The notes: a model not told the origin generated them from the sequence alone. 64,000 nucleotides of DNA from Verrucomicrobiales bacterium (GCA_028293125.1 JAQGPJ010000034.1:22465-86464), one strand, 5' to 3'. Shown: positions 2,769 to 48,083, counted from the first letter of the stretch. Numbers and translations are program-made.

Positions 2769-4256
2769 TCACGCCAGACCGCGTGACGGATGCTCCATAA
2801 TGTCCATGATGGGATGGCCGTGGACATCGGTCAGGCGGCGCTCGACGCCATTGTGATAAAAGCTGAGGCGCTCGTGGTCCAGACCGAGAAGGTGCAGGAC
2901 GGTGGCGTGGAAATCGTAAACCGTGACCGGATTCACCTCCGCCTTGTAGCCGAACTCATCGGTGGCCCCGTAGCTGTATCCGGCTTTGACGCCGGCTCCG
3001 GCCATCCAGGCGGTGAAGCCTTCGGGATTGTGGTCGCGGCCGCTGGCCCCTTTCTGGAAGGTGGGCATGCGGCCGAACTCGGTGCACCAGATCACGAGAG
3101 TGTCCTCCAGCAATCCGCGCTGTTTGAGGTCCGCCAGCAGGGCGGCGGTCGGCTGGTCCATCACCTCGCCGTGTTTGGCGTACTGCTCGGCCAGGACCTT
3201 GTGCCCGTCCCAGTTGCTGACGCCCTCCCCGCCGGTCTGATAGGCCCCGTTGAACAGCTGCACGAAGCGCACGCCCTTCTCCACCAGCCGGCGCGCGAGA
3301 ATGCAGTTGCGCGCATAGGCCGCCTTGAGGTCCTTGACCGGATTGCCCCCTTGGTCGGCCCCGTACATTTTGAGGATGTGGGCGGGCTCGTTGGTGAGGT
3401 CGGACACCTCCGGCACGGAAAGCTGCATGCGGGCGGCCAGCTCATAGCTGGAGATACGGGCGGCCAGTTCGCTGTCACCCGGGAAGCGCTCCAGATGATG
3501 GCGGTTGAGGGAGGACAGAAATCGGCGTGTGGCTTTGTCCGAGTCCGGCGTGATACCCGCCGGCCGCGCCAGGTTGCGCACCGGCTGGGAGGCATTGAAA
3601 TCCGTGCCTTGGAACGAGGCCGGCAGGAAACCGGAGCCCCAGAAATTCCCGGCGGACTGCGGGGCTCCGCGGGGGTCGGGAATGGCCACATAGGCGGGCA
3701 GGGTTTCGTTCTCGGTGCCGAGGGCGTAGGTGGTCCACGCTCCCATGCTGGGGAATCCATCCAGCGTGAAGCCGGTGCCCATGAAGTTCTCGCCGGGGCC
3801 ATGGGTATTGGTTTTTCCAGTGAGCGAGTGGATGAAGCACATCTCGTCCGCCAGCGCGCCCAGATGCGGCACCAGATCGGACACCATCTTGCCCGACTGC
3901 CCCCGGGGGTGGAAGGCCCATGGGCTCTGATTCAAATTGCCCTGCTCGCCTTGGAAAGTGACCAGATTCGCCCCGCCCGGCATGGGCTGGCCGTGGCGGC
4001 GGATGAGCTCGGGCTTGTACTCGAACGTGTCCACCTGGCTGACCGCGCCGGAGCAGAAGATCATCAGCACCTTTTTGGCTTTGGGCGTGAAGTGGGAACG
4101 CCGCGTGCCGTTGGGATCGGCGGGATTGATCACCGGACGGATGGGAACGCCGTTGGCCAGCAGGTTCCCCCGGCTCAGGAGGTGGGTGAGGGCAATGCCG
4201 CCCAGACCGGTGGCGGTGTCACGGAGAAAATGGCGTCGGCTGAGCAGCGGATGCAT
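2769..4256 (-). CDS. DUF1501 family (sulfatase-like) Tat-exported protein
   Basis: Tat motif [64 protein letters not shown]. Confidence 0.92.
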
Positions 4257-4352: not shown

Positions 4353-6986
4353 TCAGAAAACGAAGAGGAACTCGCTGGTGTTGAAGAGGGCGCGGCAGAA
4401 GGCGGGGAGTCCCCCGCTTTCGATGAAGGCGGTGGAGGCCGATTTTTCAAACCCGTCCGGAGCCCGCCCCCAGAGCAGACGGTAGGCGAGCTCCGCCTGA
4501 TCGCCGGGCCGGGAGCCGGCCTCAGTTGTCAGGCGGCCGGCGAAGAGATCCGCCTGCTGAAGCACAAAGCGGCTGTTGAAGAGATTGAGCGCCTGCAAGG
4601 GGGTATTGGAGCGGCTGCGGCGCGGCATGACCAAGCTGCCATCCGGACAGTCCAAGGAACGGAACACGCCGTCATTGGTCTGCCGGATGCGGGTCTGATA
4701 GACCATGCGGCGGAATTCGGAGGGGCTGAATTTCTCCTTGGGGAAATAGTGCATCACGTTCTCATTCTCCACCTCCACCAGATAGAACCCCGGTCCCCCG
4801 GCCTCCTGATTGAGGGTGCCGGAAACGGTCAGCATGCTGTCCCGGATGGCCTCCGCCTCCAGGCGGCGGGGTGGAAAGCGCCAGAGCAGCCGGGCATCGG
4901 CATCTGTCTTCAGCGCCTCCGCACGCGGGGCGGAGGACTGGCGGAAGGCGGCGGAGCGCAGGATGAGGCGCTGCATGTGCTTCACCGACCAGCCGCTTTT
5001 CATGAACTCGTCCGCCATCCAGTCCAGCAGTTCCGGATGGGTGGGGCGCGAGCCGTTGACCCCCAAGTCACTGGGGGTGTCCACGATGCCGCAGCCAAAG
5101 ATGTAATGCCAGATCCGGTTGACCTGCACGCGGGCGGTCAGCGGGTTGTCGGCGGAGGCCATCCAGTCCCCCAGCCGCAGACGGCGCTGCTGCTCGGGGG
5201 TGTCCACGTCCATCCCGGGACCGTTCAGCACGGTCAGGGCTCCCGGAGCCACCACCTCCTTTTTCTGAAGCGGATCACCGCGGTGCAGCCGGAAGGTGGG
5301 ACCCGGCTGACTGAAGGTTCCAAGCCAGGCGGTGGATCCGCCCTCCAGTCCGGCCACGCGGGACCGGAGTTCCGCCACCTCGGCCTTCAACCGGCGGGCC
5401 TCATCCGCCTGCGGGCCGGAAAGCCGGCTGAGTACGCCGTCGGGATCGGCTTTTCCTCCAGCGAATGGCTGGCGGGTTTCCGAACTGGCGACCACGGTCC
5501 AGGCGGCGGCGGCGGCGGCGGCGGCGGGGGCGGAGGTTTCCGAGGTTTCCCTGGAGGAGATCACCGGACCGCCGGCGGGCGGTGCCATGACCTCAAAACG
5601 GTAGGCGGTGGGAAGGCGGTCAGGGAATTGCTCCGTGCGGTCGCGGCTCCACACGATGCGGTGGATGCGGACGGCGGACGGAAAGGAGATTTTCACCCAG
5701 CCGGAGCCCGAAGCGTTTGAAATCCAGCTGCGGTCATTGCCGGTGCGGCCATCGTTGATGTGCTCCTGTTTATGAGCCTCGTAGCCGGGGAGAGTGCCCG
5801 AAACCTCCGCCACGGCTCCGGCGGAGGCGAGGGCCACATTGTTGCCGGCCTCATCGTAAATCTCCACTTCATCCACGCAGGGCTCCGCGCCGGTGGAGGC
5901 GGTGATGGTGAAACGCACCGCAATGGCCGCAGCCGGCGCGAATTCCTCTACATTCATGCGGTGATTGACCGGAGGCCGCAGGGCGGATGCCCCCCCGCCG
6001 GTCAGAGCCGGAGCCGAGGCCATGGTCCGCAGCTCCTCCAGCCGGCCCTCGGTTCCGGCCAGCGTTTTCCGCAGTTCCGCCAGCATTGGCGCCTTGCCGG
6101 GATCCGGCCGGGGATGCCAGGGCCGCTCCCCGTGGGTCACTCCCGCAAACACCGCCTGCATGGCGAAATAATCCTTCTGCAGGATGGGATCGAACTTGTG
6201 GTTGTGGCAGCGGGCGCAGCCCATGGTCAGCCCCAGAAAGGCGGTGCCCGTGGTGTTCACCATGTCCGCCAGCTCGTCCTCCCGCTGGGCCAGCGAGAGA
6301 TTGATGTCGGGGCTTTTGACAATGTCATACGGCCCCGCCACCAGAAACCCCGTGGCGGCGTCCGCTCCCAGGGCATCGCCCGCCAGCTGCTCACGGACAA
6401 ACTGGTTCCACGGCTTGTCGCTGTTGAAGGCATCGATCACATAATCCCGGTAGGGCCAGGCGGTTTTGCGCTCGCGGTTGGTCTCAAAACCGTTGGAGTC
6501 GGCGTAGCGCACCACATCCAGCCAGTGGCGCGCCCAGCGCTCGCCATAATGCGGGCTGGCCAGCACTTCATCCACCAACCGCTCCCAGGCGTCCGGGCGG
6601 GTGTCGGCCGCAAAAGCCTCCACCTGCTCGGGCGACGGCGGCAGACCGTGCATGACCAGATACAGCCGCCGGATCAGGGTGCGGCGGTCCGCGGGGCCGG
6701 AAGGCTCCAGGTGCTGCTCCTGGAGTTTCGCGGCCAGAAACTCATCAATTTCCCCCTGCGCCCAGGCCTTCCCGGTCTGGGGAGCCTCCGGACGCCTGAC
6801 CGGCTGATAGGACCAGTGGCTGGTAGTGATCTTTTCACCGTTCCCCGCCGGTGCCTTCCCCTCCGCGCCGGGGGCCGGCACTGTTCCGGCGGTGGCCGCC
6901 ACCAGGCCCAGCACCAAACCCGCGATCGCGGTGGCGCGGCGGGGACCGGTGGAGGAGTGATCGGTTTTCCAGGAACAGCTCATCAT
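4353..6986 (-). CDS. DUF1549/DUF1553 (PSD1, planctomycete cytochrome c-like) protein with inserted discoidin-like domain
   Basis: HWSYQP, YGERWARHWLDVVRYADSNG, CARCHNHKFDPI heme motif, NPLTARVQVNRIW, PTHPELLDW, RRLEAEAIRD, TPLQALNLFN. Confidence 0.92.
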   Translation of the reverse strand: MMSCSWKTDHSSTGPRRATAIAGLVLGLVAATAGTVPAPGAEGKAPAGNGEKITTSHWSYQPVRRPEAPQTGKAWAQGEIDEFLAAKLQEQHLEPSGPADRRTLIRRLYLVMHGLPPSPEQVEAFAADTRPDAWERLVDEVLASPHYGERWARHWLDVVRYADSNGFETNRERKTAWPYRDYVIDAFNSDKPWNQFVREQLAGDALGADAATGFLVAGPYDIVKSPDINLSLAQREDELADMVNTTGTAFLGLTMGCARCHNHKFDPILQKDYFAMQAVFAGVTHGERPWHPRPDPGKAPMLAELRKTLAGTEGRLEELRTMASAPALTGGGASALRPPVNHRMNVEEFAPAAAIAVRFTITASTGAEPCVDEVEIYDEAGNNVALASAGAVAEVSGTLPGYEAHKQEHINDGRTGNDRSWISNASGSGWVKISFPSAVRIHRIVWSRDRTEQFPDRLPTAYRFEVMAPPAGGPVISSRETSETSAPAAAAAAAAWTVVASSETRQPFAGGKADPDGVLSRLSGPQADEARRLKAEVAELRSRVAGLEGGSTAWLGTFSQPGPTFRLHRGDPLQKKEVVAPGALTVLNGPGMDVDTPEQQRRLRLGDWMASADNPLTARVQVNRIWHYIFGCGIVDTPSDLGVNGSRPTHPELLDWMADEFMKSGWSVKHMQRLILRSAAFRQSSAPRAEALKTDADARLLWRFPPRRLEAEAIRDSMLTVSGTLNQEAGGPGFYLVEVENENVMHYFPKEKFSPSEFRRMVYQTRIRQTNDGVFRSLDCPDGSLVMPRRSRSNTPLQALNLFNSRFVLQQADLFAGRLTTEAGSRPGDQAELAYRLLWGRAPDGFEKSASTAFIESGGLPAFCRALFNTSEFLFVF
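5502..5525. repeat. (GGC)8 trinucleotide run encoding poly-Ala in a loop of the DUF1553 protein
   Basis: ggcggcggcggcggcggcggcggc read directly. Confidence 0.85.
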
Positions 6987-7024
6987 GATGGGATTAGATT
7001 ACGGCCTGCGGGCCCTTTAAACAA

Positions 7025-7040
7025 TTCCCCGATCGGGGGA
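7025..7040 (-). promoter_or_regulatory. Palindromic regulator site 1 (TCCCCCGATCGGGGAA on - strand) abutting the -35 of the DUF1553/DUF1501 promoter
   Basis: Followed directly on the - strand by TTGTTT (7024-7019), a 17-nt spacer, TAATCT (7001-6996), then ATG at 6986. Confidence 0.7.
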
Positions 7041-7150
7041 GGGACTCCCTGCGTCCCCCGAGCGGCCGGCACCGGGTTTTGAAGGCGGGAGGGATAAAAT
7101 CACAAGCCACCGGACCGTGGGGACGGCTGCCGGCGGCGGCTTGGAATGGG

Positions 7151-8173
7151 TCAGGCATCAATGCGGACCGCGCGGTAATAACGCTTGGTCTTTCCCGCCT
7201 TAGAGTAGACCCGGCTGATTTTCACACCCTTGCCGCGCACGTTTTCCTCCACCGGCACCCAAGCGGTCATATCCTCGGATTCCTGAATGGTGTAGGTTTT
7301 GCCATTGGCCGCGTAGAAGCTGAACTCCACCGCGGTCTCGATGACGGCGTTGCCCTCCGGGGTGCTGGCGGGATTCCCGGGATCAAATCCCAGCGCGGTC
7401 TCCACGGTGTCGTCGAATCCGTCGCCATCCTTGTCCAGGGTCACTGTAGCGGGACCGTAGAGTTCGATTTCATCAATATCCGTCCCCTCGCCTATCCCCG
7501 TGGCGGGAACCAGAATCCGCAGGGCGGTGGCCTGCACTCCGGTGCTGCCCGCCCCTTGGGTGATGGCGAACTGATGCCGGTAAAACGCGGTGAACAGTTC
7601 ACCGGGCACGGTGTCATCATTGGCCGCGTAGTCCAGCGTGCCGACCGTCTGCCAGCCGGTGGCCGCATCACCGGTGTCGGGCGTGGTGCCATCGGGAAAG
7701 GAGACGCGGGTGATCTGCACCGTGTAAATGCCAAGACAGCGGTCCGTGAGCTGCCCCAGAAAAACCTCCTGCGGATCTGTGACGTTATTGCCATTGTCCC
7801 GGCCGATGGCGAACGAGGACAGAGTGGTGAGCCCCCCGAGTGAAATGCCCGCAAAGGCATTCGGCGCATTCCCGCCGATCCAGCTGTTGGAGTTGCCGTA
7901 GAGCCCGTCGTTCAGGTTGGCAGCGACATGAAAGGGAATGTTCAGCAGCGGGCCGAGATCACTGGAGGTGAAAGCGGCGGCTCCGGCGGCGGTCGCCAGA
8001 TTGGTGGGCACCGGGGCGGTCTCCTCCTCCGAAAAATGATCAGCTTCATTGCCGTCCCAAGTGAGAGTGAACCCCTCTGAAGCAGTGATCCGCATGTCCG
8101 CCCGCGCGGTGAGCGCGGCCAGAGGCAGAAACGGGATACCAATTAAAAAACCAAGGCGGGAGAGTGTTTTCAT
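7151..8173 (-). CDS. Secreted discoidin/F5-8C-like protein with conserved C-terminal tail domain
   Basis: Signal peptide (MKTLSR...TARA), NLA...NLNDGLYGNSNSWI...ATALRILV...IDEIELYG, then DKDGDGFDDTVETALGFDP tail. Confidence 0.75.
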   Translation of the reverse strand: MKTLSRLGFLIGIPFLPLAALTARADMRITASEGFTLTWDGNEADHFSEEETAPVPTNLATAAGAAAFTSSDLGPLLNIPFHVAANLNDGLYGNSNSWIGGNAPNAFAGISLGGLTTLSSFAIGRDNGNNVTDPQEVFLGQLTDRCLGIYTVQITRVSFPDGTTPDTGDAATGWQTVGTLDYAANDDTVPGELFTAFYRHQFAITQGAGSTGVQATALRILVPATGIGEGTDIDEIELYGPATVTLDKDGDGFDDTVETALGFDPGNPASTPEGNAVIETAVEFSFYAANGKTYTIQESEDMTAWVPVEENVRGKGVKISRVYSKAGKTKRYYRAVRIDA

Positions 8174-8289
8174 AGGCTGCAGGAATAAATGGAGATAAGC
8201 GGTGGGGCGCGGTCTTCCCTGCCCCGGAACCACCGGAGCAGGGAACGCCCTGCGGATGCAGACTGCCAAATGTCCTTATTGTCCTGCCA

Positions 8290-8305
8290 TCCCCCGTACG
8301 GGGGA
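8290..8305. promoter_or_regulatory. Palindromic regulator site 2 (TCCCCCGTACGGGGGA)
   Basis: Perfect palindrome (18 bp including flanks, 8289-8306) in the intergenic region upstream of the 8173 start. Confidence 0.7.
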
Positions 8306-8332
8306 TTTCATTAAAATGACATTTATCAGTTT

Positions 8333-9361
8333 TTACTCCGCCTGACGCACGGAGCGGTAGAAAAGTTTTGTCTGACCGCGCTTGGAGTACAGCCGGGTGA
8401 TTTCCCCGCCCAGACCGGGAATATTCATCTCGACCGCATTCCAGTTCTGAAGATCGCTGGAGGACTCAATGGTGTATTTTTTGTTCTTGGCGGCGTAAAA
8501 GCTGAATTCGACGGCGGTCTCGATGCCGCTGCGCGACTCCGGGGTGCTGGCAGGGCTTCGGGGGTCGAAGCCCAGTGCGGTCTCCACGGTGTCGTCAAAT
8601 CCATCGCGGTCAGAATCCGGATTCAGCGTGGACAGCAGGGTGTCGTCGATGGCGAAGGTATCCGTGAATTCAAAAACCCGCACGGTTTCGATAAGCCCGT
8701 TGAAGCCGCGGTTGTTGCCGGGCCCGACATTGCCGGCCCCGATGCGGATGCCGGGCGCGGGATCGTAATCGGGGGAGTTGGTGCTGGTGGCCAACAGGCC
8801 ATCCACATAAAGCTCCCATTTGCCGTTTTTGTGGACGGCGGCCACGTGCTGAAGCTGGCCGGTGCGCACCGGAGCGGCGGCGGCGCTGATCGCCACATTC
8901 GACTGATGGATGGCCCAGGCGCCGTTGCCGAAAGTCTGGAGCAGAATACCGTTGGTGCCGCCACCCAGTTCCACCACTGCCAGCTCCTGATTCGGATTCG
9001 GAGTGACGTCGATGCGGACAATGGCCTCCACACCCCACTTGGCGATATCGGTGGGATTCACATCCGCCTCCGCACCCTCGAAATACTCTGTGGCGGAAAC
9101 ATTATGGGCACTGTCCGTATTGGCGAAAAGCACCCCCAGAACGCTGCCTGTTGCGGCATAAACCGGGGAGCCGGCCACTGTCAGGTCCAGTTCGCCGGTC
9201 GTGTCCACCAGCGTCTCCGCCGCCGGGGAGCCGGCGGTGCCCTTCTCCTCTTCCCCCATCGTCCAGGTGTGCAGCACGGTGATATCCGCTTTCAGCAGTG
9301 CCGGAATGCCGGCCATGAGCATGCTCAGGAGAGCGGTGGGGAGAGGATGACTTGGTTTCAT
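8333..9361 (-). CDS. Secreted LamG/concanavalin-like jelly-roll protein with conserved C-terminal tail domain
   Basis: Signal peptide, WGVEAIVR, QHVAAVHKNGKWELYVDG, IRIGAG, FNGLIETVRVF, then DSDRDGFDDTVETALGFDP tail. Confidence 0.8.
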   Translation of the reverse strand: MKPSHPLPTALLSMLMAGIPALLKADITVLHTWTMGEEEKGTAGSPAAETLVDTTGELDLTVAGSPVYAATGSVLGVLFANTDSAHNVSATEYFEGAEADVNPTDIAKWGVEAIVRIDVTPNPNQELAVVELGGGTNGILLQTFGNGAWAIHQSNVAISAAAAPVRTGQLQHVAAVHKNGKWELYVDGLLATSTNSPDYDPAPGIRIGAGNVGPGNNRGFNGLIETVRVFEFTDTFAIDDTLLSTLNPDSDRDGFDDTVETALGFDPRSPASTPESRSGIETAVEFSFYAAKNKKYTIESSSDLQNWNAVEMNIPGLGGEITRLYSKRGQTKLFYRSVRQAE

Positions 9362-9490
9362 AGCGATTTTACTGGCAGGGGGAGGAATGCTGGGATTTAA
9401 GAAAGCCGAATGCGTCACAGCCGCGTGTCAGGCAGGAAAAGTCCGGTGCCAGACAGGGCGCATCGTGATTCATGAAGCGTTTGGTGAATA

Positions 9491-9506
9491 TACCCCGTTC
9501 GGGGGA
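9491..9506 (-). promoter_or_regulatory. Palindromic regulator site 3 (TCCCCCGAACGGGGTA on - strand)
   Basis: In the divergent intergenic region; on the - strand followed by TATTCA, a 17-nt spacer and CACGAT. Confidence 0.65.
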
Positions 9507-9550
9507 GAGACTTAATCATCCATCCGGCAAATTGTTTCACCTTAGCCTGC

Positions 9551-12500
9551 ATGAATTCCCGGTTTGCCACTGCCGCCCTGTTTCTGCTGCTGTTACCGGG
9601 AATGCCGGTGTCCGCACAGGCCCGGTTGCCGGGAACCCCTCTGCCCGGCTCCGCCCCGGCATCGGCCCTGCGGGAGCCGGTGCATCCCCGGCGCAATGTG
9701 GAGGAATTCCCCGCCGTGCAGGCGCGTCTCCTCCGCTTCACCATCCTGCGGACCAGCGGACAGGAACCCTGCCTGGATGAGCTGGAGGTTTACGGTCCGG
9801 ACGCGCCGGAGCGGAATCTGGCGCTGGCCAGTGCGGGCACGCGGGCGCGGGCTTCGGGCACCTACCCGGAGTACCGCATCCACGCCTTGGCGCATATCAA
9901 CGACGGCCTCTACGGCAACGGACACAGCTGGATATCCAATACGGCGGTCGGCAGCTGGGTGGAACTGGAGTTTCCCGCACCGGTGCGCATCAGCCGCGTG
10001 GTCTGGAGCCGGGACCGCGAGCGGAAGTTCATCGACCGTCTGGCCACGGAATACCGCATTGAGGTGTCCGAGAGCGCAGCACCGGACGGTGCCGGCAACA
10101 GCTCGCGGCAGGTGGCCTCCTCCGCGGACCGCAGGCCACTGCCGCAGGAGGCCATGGGAGCCGGACTCCTGTTCAATGCACCGGGGAATTTTGCGGCGGC
10201 TCCCGCCCCGGTGGCTCCGCCGGGCAATGACCGGCCCGCAGCCCGCGATTATCTGCTGCGCATCTGGCAGACCGCCGACGGGCTGCCCTCGAACACCGTC
10301 ACCTCCCTGCTGCAGACCGGCGATGGCTGGCTGTGGGTGGGCACCACCAATGGGCTGGCCCGCTTTGATGGCCGGCGGTTCACGGCCTTTGGGGAGGATC
10401 AGGGACTGCGGAATCTGAATATCACCTGCCTGTTCGAGGACCGGGAGGGCACGCTCTGGGCGGGCACAGAGGGCGGCGGGCTGGCCTTCCGGCGCGGCGG
10501 GCGGTTCCATACCCTGCCCACCGGCACCAGTCTGGCCGGCAATACCGTGCTGGCACTGGCCGCGGATGCAGAGGGTGTGCTGTGGATCGCCACGGCGGAG
10601 GCCCTGCTGCAATACCGCAGCGGCCATCTGGAGCGGGTTCTGAATAGCCCGGTCACCGGTCTGGCCATGGGGGAGAACGGCCTCTGGCTGCTGCATGAGT
10701 CCGTGCTTTCACGCTGGGATGGCGGGAAGCTGGTGAAGGCTCCCGCCAATCTCGATCCGTCCTGCTTCTCCTCCATCAGCGCCCTGGCCGGAGGGAAGGA
10801 TGGGGCGCTGTGGTTCGGCGGGGCCAATGGGTATATCGGCCGTCTGGCGGGCGGGGCGGTGACCACCTTCGGCGATGGCCATACGGTGCTGACATCCAAC
10901 ACCTGGCAGTTGCTGGCCATTGCCGGCGGTGATTTGTGGATCGGCACCTCCTCCAGCGGGCTGGCCCGGCTGCGGGGACATGATCTGCTGCCGCTGACCA
11001 CGGATGACGGCCTGCCCTCCAACTGTGTGCGCGCCCTGTGTCAGGACCGCACGGGCAATCTGTGAGCCGGGACGGCGGGCGGAGGGCTGGTCCGGCTCCG
11101 GCCCCGGCGCATCCAGGCTCTGACCACGCACGATGGGCTGTCCCACAATGCGATCATGGCGTTGGCGGAGGACGCGCAGGGATCCGTCTGGATCGGCACC
11201 GACGGAGGCGGACTGAACTGCTGGAGGGATGGCAAGGCGGTGCCGGACACCCCCAGCTATGTTCTGGACAATCAGACGGTCTCCGCTCTGGCGCTGCCGG
11301 CGGATGGATCGCTCTGGCTGGGCACCGCCGGCGGGGGAGTGTTCCACATCGATAAAGGGAAGGTCTCGCATCTCACCACCGCGCAGGGGCTGCCGGGCCT
11401 CATGGTCACCTCCCTGTGCGGGGATTCCAAAGGACGGCTGTGGATCGGCACTCTGGACGGCGGTCCAGCCTGCCTGGACGGCACCCGCATCACCCGGCCG
11501 CCGGCCATCGCGGCGCTGGCGCACCAGCCGGTGACCGGCATTTTGGAGGATGCCGCCGGCGGTCTGTGGTTTGGCACCAAGGGCCAGGGGCTGGCCCGTC
11601 TGGATGCCGGCACCGGCACCTTGGTCTGGTGGACACGTTCCGAGGGACTGGCCAGCGGCTTCATCCGGACCCTGCACGAGGCCCCGGCGGGCACGGTGTG
11701 GGCGGGCACCAATGGCGGCCTGACCCGTTGGCGGAATGGCCGGCTTTTCAATTTCACAGGCCGCCACGGCCTGCCGAATGTGGTGGTTTCCCAGATTCTG
11801 GATGATGGCGCGGACAATCTGTGGCTGGGCACGAGCGGGGGGGTGCTGCGAGTTTCCCTGGATTCCTTTGAGGCTGTGGCGTCGGGCCGGCATGACCGGC
11901 TGCAAATCCTGGCGCTGGGCACGGAAAACGGTCTGCCCAGCCTGGAATGCACCGGCGGCAGCCAGCCGGCAGGCCTGCGCACCCGCGATGGACGGCTCTG
12001 CTTTGGCACCGTGGGCGGGCTGGCGGTGATCCAGCCCCGGGACTTTCAGGGACCTTCGGAATTCCCGCCGGTGGTCATCGAATCCTGGACCTCCGGCTCC
12101 GCCACAGTCCGGCTGGAGCGCGGAGGAGGGACCGGTCCGCTTGAAGTGCCGCCGGGAACGGCGCGGCTGGGATTTGAATTCACTGCCCTGTCACCGGGCT
12201 CCCCGGAGCGCATCCGCTTCCGCTACCGGCTGGCGGGACTTGAGGAGTCCTGGGTGCAGGCGGAGCCGGGAGCGGAGCGCACCGCCACCTACACCCAGCC
12301 GGCACCGGGAAGTTATGTGTTCGAAGTGATGGCCAGCGCGGACAATGGCCCTTGGAGCGGTGTTCCCGCCCGGATCCCGCTGCGGGTGCTGGCTCCATGG
12401 TGGCGGCAGCCGTGGGCGGCGGCGGCGGGGGTGCTGCTGGCCGTGGCGTCGGTGGCCGGGCTGGCCCGTGCGCTGACCCGCCGCCGTCTCCAACGGCGTC

Positions 12501-13243
12501 TGCGGGAGGTGGAGCGCCAGTTTACCTTGGAGCGGGAGCGGTCGCGGATCGCCCGCGATATCCACGACGATCTGGGGGCCAATCTCACCCAGATCAGCCT
12601 GCTCAGCGCCTTGGGGCAGGAGCAGCGGCACGAGCCGGAAAAGGCCCGCGCTCAATTCGCCGCCATCGCGGCCACCTCCGGCGAGCTGGTGCAGGCCATG
12701 GACGCCATTGTGTGGGCGGTGAACCCCAGTCAGGATACCCTCGAAAGCCTGGCCCGCTACCTGGTGCGGTTCGCAGGCGATTTTTTTGAACACACCCAAG
12801 TCCGCCTGCGGCTGGATGTGCCGCCCCAGCTCCCCCGCGCAGACCTGTCCTCGGAGGTGCGGCACAATCTCTTCCTCGCCGCCAAGGAGGCGCTCCACAA
12901 TGCCTTGCACCATGCCGGAGCCGGGGAGGTGCGGTTGAGCCTTTCCGTGGAGGGCCGCACACCTGACATCACCACCACCGCAGGCCGCAATGCCCATGGA
13001 GTGCCGGGAGGCCTGATGGTGGAAATTGAGGACGATGGCTGTGGCTTCACCCCCGAACGGGTGGCGGATCAAGGAGGCAACGGGCTCGGAAACATGCACC
13101 ACCGGCTGACAGAGTGCGGCGGCGGCTGCGTGATTGACTCCATTCCCGGACGCGGCACCCGCGTCCAACTCCGCATCCCCCTGTGCCTGACGCCTCCCCA
13201 GCCCCGGGTTACCCATCCGGCTTCCCTGCGTCCTGTTCCATGA
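9551..13243 (+). pseudogene. Sensor histidine kinase (discoidin-like + Reg_prop beta-propellers + YYY + TM + HisKA_3 + HATPase) interrupted by in-frame TGA at 11063-11065
   Basis: ORFs 9551-11065 and 11156-13243 are in the same frame. The junction reads GNL*AGTAGGGL where the repeat consensus is G.LW.GT.GGGL. H-box RIARDIHDDLGANLT, EALHNA, DDGCGF, GNGLGNM. Confidence 0.85.
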
Positions 13244-13872
13244 ATCCTCCGCCCATCCGCGTCGCCCTTGTGGAGGACAATGCCCGGCTCCGCGAGCAGT
13301 TGTCGGATTTCATCGCGGCCTCAGACGGCTTTGCCTGTGTGGCGGCCTTCCCCACCGCCGAGGCCGCCCTCCAGGGGCTGCCCAAAACCGCTCCGGATGT
13401 GGTCCTCATGGACATCGAACTGCCCAAAATGTCGGGCGTGGACTGCGTGGCCCGCCTCCGGGAACTGATGCCGGAGGTCAGCGTGGTCATGCTGACCGTT
13501 TACGACAACAGCTCCCACATCTTCAAAGCCTTGGAGAACGGGGCCAGCGGCTATCTTCTCAAACGCACGCCTCCCGTGGAGCTGCTGCGCTCCATCGCCG
13601 ATGTGTGCCACGGCGGTGCGCCCATGAACAGCCACATCGCCCGCCTCGTGGTCCAGTCCTTCCACCGGCGCGGCGCCTCGCCCCGGCCCACGGAGAACCT
13701 GACTCCCCGCGAGGAGGAGATCCTCCGCCTCGTCGCCAAAGGCTTCATCAACAAGGAAATCGCCGAGGAGCTCGGCATCGCCCTCGAAACCGTGCGCCAG
13801 CACCTGAAGAACTGCTATTCCAAGCTCCACGTCCGCACCCGCACCGAAGCCGCCATGCGGCTGCTGTCGTGA
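13240..13872 (+). CDS. NarL/LuxR-family response regulator
   Basis: VALVED, DVVLMDIELP, GASGYLLK, LTPREEEIL, NKEIAEELGI; ATGA overlap with the kinase stop. Confidence 0.95.
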   Translation: MNPPPIRVALVEDNARLREQLSDFIAASDGFACVAAFPTAEAALQGLPKTAPDVVLMDIELPKMSGVDCVARLRELMPEVSVVMLTVYDNSSHIFKALENGASGYLLKRTPPVELLRSIADVCHGGAPMNSHIARLVVQSFHRRGASPRPTENLTPREEEILRLVAKGFINKEIAEELGIALETVRQHLKNCYSKLHVRTRTEAAMRLLS

Positions 13873-47634: not shown

Positions 47635-48083
47635 ACTGAGCGGACGGCGGAGCCGGGGTTGAAATTTTCAGTGATTCCCTGGGGAAAGACTGCGTCAGCA
47701 GCGGTCCGGCCTGCCCGGCCACGATTTTCCCCGGCACGGGGAATGGCGGCGGGGAGGTCCTGCATAGGATCGGAGGGAGACTGGACGGCAACTCTTACAT
47801 CGGATGAGTGATTAATCACACAGGGTATCTAAGGTCAATGAAATTTCAAGATCCGGGGTAGGATTTTCCAATTTAAGCAGGATTTTCCATAATTTCCCGA
47901 AAAAACGATTGGTCTGTTTAAAGCATTTACAGGCTGTTCACCTCATGAAATCGAACAGTATTTTTCAGCGGTTATAAACCTGTTCAACACTGGATCCCGG
48001 CTTAAAAATTGTCAGGTTTCCAAGTTGCATTCCGGGGACCGTTCTGGCACGGAAAGGAGGTCCAGGCGTGCCCTGCGTGCGCC

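Follow-up and report, generated by a model that had tools for sequence, protein, structure and literature searches.

Three consecutive intergenic regions in a 64,000-nucleotide stretch of DNA from a Verrucomicrobiales bacterium (GCA_028293125.1 JAQGPJ010000034.1:22465-86464; the whole stretch is called the window here) each carry one copy of a 16-bp palindrome, which raises the question of what these copies are and which protein, if any, reads them. A preliminary description had taken them for binding sites of the NarL-type regulator encoded at 13240-13872, each abutting the -35 element of a minus-strand promoter. In silico, this proposal finds support in the confinement of the palindrome to the locus, its footprint across relatives, its co-occurrence with the regulator, its form of two inverted heptamers and the membership of the regulator in the NarL family, and each refuting condition of the preliminary description that computation could address turned out favourable to it. 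We consider it quite likely that the palindrome is the operator of the adjacent NarL-family regulator, with a class II-like activation of three minus-strand promoters predicted from sequence.

Both reading of the sequence and pattern search confirm the coordinates of the three copies, which follow the consensus T[CAT]CCCCG-WW-CGGGG[GAT]A and lie in regions of 164, 159 and 189 bp. Candidate site 1 (7025-7040, minus strand; TTCCCCGATCGGGGGA on the plus and TCCCCCGATCGGGGAA on the minus strand) stands upstream of a gene for a DUF1549/DUF1553 protein (4353-6986, minus strand). Candidate site 2 (8290-8305; TCCCCCGTACGGGGGA) is perfectly symmetric, is assigned no strand, scores 21.7 bits in the matrix described below and lies upstream of a secreted-protein gene (7151-8173, minus strand). 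Candidate site 3 (9491-9506, minus strand; TACCCCGTTCGGGGGA on the plus and TCCCCCGAACGGGGTA on the minus strand) occupies the divergent spacer between a second secreted-protein gene (8333-9361, minus strand) and the gene of a sensor histidine kinase (9551-13243, plus strand). When read on the minus strand, all three open with the perfect arm TCCCCCG and close with CGGGG[A/G/T]A. In these sites, as in the orthologous ones, the two inverted heptamers are separated by exactly 2 bp, an arrangement referred to as 7-2-7.

The palindrome is concentrated at this locus far beyond expectation. Within the window, 7 strand-specific matches with at most 2 mismatches were found, against 0.78 ± 1.15 in shuffled sequences, and none of 100 shuffles reached 7. 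The strict 16-mer occurs at 3 loci in the 6,484,321-bp genome (62.5% G+C), all of them here, and the core CCCCGWWCGGGG at 4, the fourth being on contig C84 inside a 1407-codon open frame. Base composition would give 8.1 loci of the core and 0.28 of TNCCCCGWWCGGGGNA genome-wide. The enrichment expected of a genome-wide motif scan was thus absent (4 core loci seen, about 8 expected), while the clustering is extreme, as at least 3 core matches would fall by chance within some 2.5-kb span with a genome-wide probability of about 3e-6 to 3e-5. With a matrix built including the three window sites, these scored 21.7-27.1 bits in the genome and the next best locus 18.8; the matches that follow (18.8, 18.7 and 18.6 bits) are located in long open frames or at their margins. 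In 192 kb of other loci scanned with the matrix, no match reached 16 bits. Two further matches in the window, at 47728-47743 (2 mismatches, 14.1 bits) and at 13049-13064 inside the 3' end of the kinase gene (7.8 bits), were taken as chance.

By the shuffles, the genome scan, the scans of relatives and the clustering statistics, a chance origin of the three palindromes was rejected. A repetitive extragenic palindromic (REP) element or another dispersed intergenic repeat, the outcome that the preliminary description had named as incompatible with its proposal, was rejected as well: all 3 strict matches in this genome fall within the locus, only 4 core loci exist in 6.48 Mb, and relatives have 0-3 core loci per genome. 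Nor do the copies appear to be a relic of tandem gene duplication. Outside the palindrome, the shared upstream DNA amounts to a 7-nt flank at sites 1 and 3 only, so that any duplication would be old and the palindrome kept by selection.

Phylogenetic footprinting points in the same direction. The site is present in all 14 orthologous kinase loci with upstream DNA (G000, G001, G002, G006, G011, G013, G017, G020, G042, G052 and G041, and the metagenome loci L054, L055 and L056, whose kinases are 58-63% identical), always in the divergent spacer between the kinase and secreted-protein genes and in constant orientation; two more orthologous loci, G023 and G047, are cut at a contig end and stand outside the 14. 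It is also the only invariant block of that spacer. Indeed, when 11 spacers of 156 nt were aligned, at a mean column identity of 46%, 12 columns were invariant, 11 of them in the motif and the remaining one a lone A 23 nt beyond the site. The gene neighbourhood is conserved too, as the kinase-regulator operon diverges from at least one homologue of the 7151-8173 protein in 7 of 7 loci, with the DUF1553-DUF1501 pair near in 5, and the site recurs upstream of DUF1553 in five of the six loci that have this gene (G000, G001, G002, G006 and G017).

The arrangement downstream of the sites resembles that of promoters. All six hexamers quoted in the preliminary description were found at their minus-strand places. 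After site 1 (6996-7024), TTGTTT (7024-7019) and TAATCT (7001-6996) are separated by a 17-nt spacer; after site 2 (8260-8289), TGGCAG (8289-8284) and CAGTCT (8265-8260), a weak pair, by 18 nt; and after site 3 (9462-9490), TATTCA (9490-9485) and CACGAT (9467-9462) by 17 nt. All these elements are on the minus strand. At the offset found for site 1, orthologous DUF1553 promoters show the pattern TAnnnT (TACCCT, TAAGCT, TATGAT). For a broader count, 18 sites oriented toward a secreted-protein or DUF1553 gene were used, leaving out distal tandem copies as well as G001 and G042, near-duplicates of G006 and G017, respectively, and keeping L056 (close to G017). T immediately follows the site in 17 of the 18, a -10-like hexamer (A at position 2, T at position 6, at least 3 of 6 bases) stands at offset 22-24 in 10, compared with about 0.8 per other offset, and 'TA' is found at offset 22 or 23 in 11. 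The -35/-10 spacing first noticed in the window recurs in other genera.

The distance to the DUF1553 start codon varies little. The DUF1553 ATG at 6986 lies 38 nt past site 1 and 9 nt past TAATCT. In four independent DUF1553 promoters, all of which lead into proteins with differing N-termini, the first ATG 37-40 nt past the site opens the full frame of 877-971 codons (4/4), and it lies 9-12 nt past the -10-like hexamer. This short distance suggests that the DUF1553 mRNAs are probably leaderless or nearly so. If the -10 element is placed at -12 to -7, the site would span about -51 to -36, with its centre near -43.5, which is a class II-like position, as activator sites of class II promoters are centred at about -41 to -44 and abut or overlap the -35 element.

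The regulator encoded at 13240-13872 (plus strand), whose start overlaps the kinase stop, is the proposed binder of the palindrome. Its receiver and its GerE/LuxR-type helix-turn-helix score above the Pfam cut-offs (Response_reg E 6.2e-25, GerE E 4e-18), which places it in the NarL/FixJ class. Among proteins of solved structure, E. coli NarL (1a04; full-length alignment, E 9.8e-30) is the one closest to it, and the best NCBIfam model for the regulator is likewise NarL (NF007935), at 137 bits against an equivalog cut-off of 250; moreover, Pfam and NCBIfam do not place the partner kinase with NarX/NarQ. Judged by sequence, the regulator is a member of the NarL family and not a NarL orthologue. 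The core of its recognition helix, ETVRQHLKNCY, is identical in 8 of 8 orthologues, an invariance that would match the conservation of the site, and the helices of the four closest paralogues in this genome differ from it. When aligned to NarL, the helix reads TVRQHLKN against TVKVHVKH, positions that we take to contact bases, and this naturally suggests a DNA specificity related to but distinct from that of NarL. Among the genes tracked across loci, the adjacent regulator is the sole DNA-binding protein.

The distribution of the site follows that of the kinase-regulator pair. When the 16-mer TNCCCCGWWCGGGGNA was searched in 151 genomes of the order, the exact sequence was found within the family in 8 of 13 kinase-positive and in none of 24 kinase-negative genomes, and all 14 matching loci of those 8 genomes are the orthologous locus; a reversed-pattern control had 2 matches within the family. 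Outside the family, 7 single matches compare with 9 of the control, a background level. In a scan of 41 related genomes for the 12-base core, both matches of G001, G002, G006 and G017 each fall in the orthologous locus, as does one of three in G020, and genomes without a kinase orthologue have 0-3 matches. None of 14 off-locus core matches in family genomes has the flanks T1/A16, and most lie in long open frames. In six more distant kinase relatives from metagenomes (L057-L062, 44-48% identity), no site of at least 13 bits and no obvious alternative palindrome was seen upstream of the kinase.

Several observations weigh against the proposed operator and its promoters. Six other NarL-type regulators are encoded in the genome at E <= 1e-20, and any of them could bind instead. 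A consensus promoter scan of 6900-9700 returned no sigma-70-like site at a threshold of 9/12 (E. coli-type consensus), so the proposed promoters are weak by E. coli rules, and 8 of the 18 sites, including site 2, fail the strict -10 criterion at offset 22-24. The near-invariant T that opens the '-35' hexamer could be an operator base instead. The compared genomes are related (three genera), and the counts overstate their independence. A terminator scan flags site 1 on the minus strand and site 2 on the plus strand as a hairpin with a T-rich tail. Finally, the kinase gene is split by an in-frame TGA at 11063-11065 into 9551-11065 and 11066/11156-13243, at a codon that is TGG (Trp) in 7 of 7 orthologues and belongs to the conserved Reg_prop motif G-x-L-W-x-G-T; the circuit may hence be impaired in this genome. 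The orthologues are single open frames of 1184-1288 codons. For the TGA, two origins come into question, a nonsense mutation of recent date and an error of the assembly. From four sequencing runs, reads and contigs were compared with 6800-11300, and related strains were found in three of the four; the run with the whole stretch possibly comes from the source DNA and is thus not independent.

Among the alternatives, the one that survives best accepts the adjacent regulator as the binder, acting mainly as a repressor or as an autoregulator of the kinase operon, with the minus-strand -35 and -10 elements being coincidental. The empty promoter scan fits this explanation, and so does the position of the most conserved copy, which adjoins the kinase gene, with 41-48 nt between the end of the proximal site and the start of the kinase in most loci. 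In addition, at the G013 locus (L024, G013:C63, 12423-17469) DUF1501 and then DUF1553 follow the regulator directly on the kinase strand without a site of their own; in the other loci, the two genes form a separate divergent unit that has one. Repression from such a site has a precedent in frdA, whose 7-2-7 site close to the start of transcription lets NarL act as a repressor (PMC4549865). On the other hand, the asymmetric arms are oriented alike toward the DUF1553 and secreted-protein genes in all loci, the peak of -10-like hexamers at offset 22-24 runs in the direction of the minus-strand genes, the DUF1553 ATG is fixed at 37-40 nt, and window sites 1 and 2 are not adjacent to the kinase gene. 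Repression or autoregulation as the main role is thus unlikely, even if worth keeping in view. The distance to the kinase start and the gene order in G013 do suggest, however, that the same palindrome may also drive the kinase operon. The preliminary description needs a correction at the divergent spacer, where the site may serve both sides.

Activation by the adjacent regulator also has to be set against the explanation that the operator is real and conserved but bound by a different factor, which could be a further protein of LuxR/NarL type or a dimeric regulator that is unrelated and has its gene elsewhere. The six further NarL-type regulators would provide candidates, and perfect single palindromes occur in other families without a close orthologue of the regulator nearby (in G137, the best regulator matches are 48% identical). 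What speaks for the adjacent protein is that the family site is confined to genomes with the kinase-regulator pair and always lies directly beside it, that the four closest paralogues have other recognition helices, that the site is of the NarL-family 7-2-7 form, and that matches outside the family are no commoner than those of the reversed-pattern control. We therefore regard a different binder as quite improbable.

The palindromes of other families are perfect single copies of TCCCCCG-WW-CGGGGGA, at 4004-4019 of L052 (G137:C2), 3997-4012 of L051 (G098:C1) and 4000-4015 of L046 (G138:C29). The copy in G137 sits in a 94-bp divergent spacer as part of a 28-bp extended palindrome, 33 nt before a DUF1553-DUF1501 open frame, and that in G098 about 205 nt upstream of a DUF1501 gene. 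They may be due to chance or may mark related circuits; none of the regulators found in these families has the same recognition helix.

It is very improbable that the palindromes act as RNA hairpins, that is, as intrinsic terminators of upstream minus-strand genes or as structures of the 5' untranslated region, since the features in favour (site 2 lies 28 nt past the stop of 8333-9361 and has a hairpin of greater stability than shuffles, z -2.7; site 1 is found 110 nt past the stop of 7151-8173; both are flagged by the terminator scan) are countered by terminator-like matches not above the shuffle level (4 in the region, 2.8 ± 1.3 in shuffles), by the absence of any gene end on the strand that carries the T-rich tail of site 2, by folds of sites 1 and 3 no better than shuffles (z +0.9 and +0.3), by the location of site 3 and of every orthologous copy, which stand between the starts of divergent genes and have nothing to terminate, and by a search of Rfam that matched no family (best E-value 0.1, unrelated models). 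An identity as intrinsic terminators was rejected on the divergent-start position, the two of three hairpins that do not exceed shuffles in stability and the terminator count. Natural variants agree with this: CCCCCAAACGGGG in G011 and TTACCCG...CGGGG[G/A]A in G013 and G052 break the pairing and are not compensatory, so the constraint is on DNA sequence and not on RNA pairing.

If the palindrome is an operator, its limits may reach beyond the 16 bp. The partial copy that had been noticed beside site 1 proved to be a half-site: the arm TCCCCCG is present, whereas the second arm is degenerate, and the full-site score is -2.1 bits compared with 21.6-27.9 for real sites. This half-site (7054-7069, without strand; TCCCCCGAGCGGCCGG) lies 29 bp from site 1 and is possibly a weak auxiliary site. 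It echoes the tandem second sites of relatives, as a second full or near-full site is found 30-33 bp away in G017, G020, G041, G042 and L056. In parallel, sites 1 and 3 have 7 more bases in common on the 3' side of the plus strand (GGGGGA-G[G/A]GACT), which extends them to a 23-nt repeat of 87% identity (7024-7046 and 9490-9512), and the orthologous spacers also run on as GGGGGAG. From this common flank, the operator may be longer than 16 bp and asymmetric.

From the features described so far, we infer binding by the regulator, activation rather than repression, the transcription starts, autoregulation and the signal, which would combine as follows. The Reg_prop/Y_Y_Y/HisKA_3 kinase encoded at 9551-13243 would be the sensor partner of the regulator, and a dimer of the phosphorylated regulator would bind the two inverted heptamers of the 7-2-7 site. 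The bound dimer would abut a weak -35 hexamer at the three minus-strand promoters, at about -51 to -36, and activate them in a class II-like way. The predicted targets are the PSCyt2/PSD1 (DUF1549/DUF1553) and DUF1501 pair and the two lectin-like secreted proteins. From the divergent spacer, site 3 would probably drive the kinase-regulator operon as well and thus lead to autoregulation, and the input of the kinase is likely to be a glycan that the regulated proteins would bind as well.

The proposed targets are all encoded on the minus strand. In the product of 4353-6986, a PSCyt2 (DUF1549)/PSD1 (DUF1553) protein (Pfam E 2.8e-82 and 3.6e-83), a CBM32/discoidin-like insert occupies the centre. 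The DUF1501 gene (2769-4256, minus strand; Pfam E 6.7e-147) lies downstream of the DUF1553 gene and is probably in one operon with it, the pair being syntenic in 5 relatives. The DUF1553 protein has 877 aa here and is without the N-terminal CxxCH (PSCyt1-like) segment of the 954-971-aa orthologues (L021, L023, L025); the distance between start codon and operator is unchanged despite this missing segment. The secreted protein of 7151-8173 has a discoidin-like region, matches no Pfam or NCBIfam family and has in common with the product of 8333-9361 a C-terminal domain, the two C-termini being 56% identical. The product of 8333-9361 is a secreted Laminin_G_3 (concanavalin-like lectin) protein (Pfam E 7.7e-15). 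The common C-terminal domain itself matches no Pfam or NCBIfam family. It opens with an Asp-rich DxDxDG-like stretch and is encoded by a 143-nt direct repeat inside the two secreted-protein genes (7283-7425 and 8465-8607; 79% identity, spacing 1182).

The kinase encoded at 9551-13243 (plus strand), interrupted by the in-frame TGA, has a CBM32-like N-terminal domain followed by a Reg_prop propeller, Y_Y_Y, HisKA_3 and HATPase domains. Residues 37-197, at the N-terminus of the kinase, align with the DUF1553 insert at 49% identity (E 3e-43; window positions 9650-10150 and 5535-6011) and with a part of the 7151-8173 product at 28% (E 2e-8). In the latter, the two segments that match the kinase N-terminus stand in swapped order, which suggests a permuted or rearranged domain. 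A structural model of the kinase N-terminal domain from 19 homologues (predicted local distance difference test score 88.9, predicted template modelling score 0.86) is matched best by the galactanase BT0290 of Bacteroides, in its C-terminal domain (Z 14.2, root-mean-square deviation 2.5 Å, 132 residues aligned), and the only Foldseek match at E <= 0.001 is the same entry. The structural matches that follow, to CBM32, fucolectin and F5/8 type C modules, reach Z 5.2-7.6, values that the tool flags as common, and the Pfam family F5_F8_type_C stays below its cut-off on the module (E 0.0083). As modelled, the module common to the kinase N-terminus and the DUF1553 insert is of the galactose-binding-domain-like/CBM32/discoidin fold. 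Since the sensor and a target have this fold in common, the likely input is a glycan that the regulated proteins also bind, and we infer that sensor and targets bind the same glycan.

A further step, which we consider possible but doubtful, would be a self-referential glycan sensor, in which the kinase carries the CBM32-like module of its own target, a module with an echo in a co-regulated secreted protein, sensor and effectors recognize a common ligand, and one symmetric 7-2-7 site between promoters that face away from each other fires leaderless effector mRNAs together with the kinase operon. If true, this would be the first regulatory entry into the abundant and uncharacterised PSCyt/PSD/DUF1501 modules of Planctomycetes and Verrucomicrobia. 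Independently of this step, the predicted regulon is small, sharply defined and conserved in at least three genera, and its members come from families abundant in these two groups. The pairing of palindrome and regulator would offer the first regulatory handle on secreted proteins without an assigned function, and the carbohydrate-binding-type module common to sensor and target makes the role of the PSCyt2/PSD1-DUF1501 pairs testable through the ligand of the module.

Among known systems, the closest likeness is to NarL and NarP of E. coli. In the portions of PMC4549865 and PMC2718512 used here, NarL/NarP dimers bind inverted heptamers 2 bp apart, and NarL activates napF from a 7-2-7 site at -40 to -49 and yeaR from one at -38 to -47 (PMC4549865), both immediately upstream of the -35 element; the predicted position of about -51 to -36 is close to these. 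The E. coli sites at napF, yeaR, nirB and fdnG are, like those described here, 7-2-7 inverted heptamers for a receiver and GerE dimer. An engineered high-affinity NarL site reads TACCCCTAAAGGGGTA (PMC4549865), and the idealised site of the present locus, TACCCCGAACGGGGTA, differs from it at two symmetric positions. In particular, the heptamer TACCCCG agrees with the TACCCCT of NarL in 6 of 7 bases, the inner base being G/C here and T/A in NarL. The systems differ in their remaining parts: in place of NarX/NarQ there is a Reg_prop/Y_Y_Y kinase that has a CBM32-like domain, and the proposed targets are secreted proteins of unknown function instead of respiratory enzymes.

A similar geometry is also present in the LuxR/TraR-type activators, whose lux and tra boxes are centred near -42.5. 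There too, a GerE-type dimer on a palindrome overlaps or abuts a weak -35 element and activates in a class II-type manner, although these proteins are controlled by ligand binding and not by phosphorylation, and their boxes of 18-20 bp are unrelated in sequence to the present palindrome. In terms of the sensor, the nearest parallel is found in the hybrid two-component systems of Bacteroides, whose periplasmic Reg_prop/Y_Y_Y sensors control polysaccharide utilisation loci. They have the same combination of a Reg_prop and Y_Y_Y sensor beside genes for secreted carbohydrate-binding-type proteins, with a glycan as the likely signal. Unlike them, kinase and regulator are separate proteins here, the kinase belongs to the HisKA_3 type, the output domain is NarL/GerE rather than AraC, and the sensor has an extra N-terminal CBM32-like domain that is homologous to an insert in a regulated protein.

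The target operon has the PSCyt2/PSD1 and DUF1501 domain architecture of pairs that are abundant in Planctomycetes and Verrucomicrobia, of unknown function and sometimes accompanied by Laminin_G_3 or F5_F8_type_C domains (PMC3542564, PMC5615132). The parts of these two papers considered here give no regulator or operator for such pairs, for which a two-component system and its site are now predicted. In the literature searched, the motif and the circuit are undescribed; the supplementary DUF1501-cluster figures of PMC3542564 and PMC5615132 might show neighbouring two-component genes. All in all, the type of mechanism proposed, a NarL-family dimer on a 7-2-7 palindrome in a class II-like position, is a textbook one, and it is the proposed operator, the regulator and the predicted regulon that are new.

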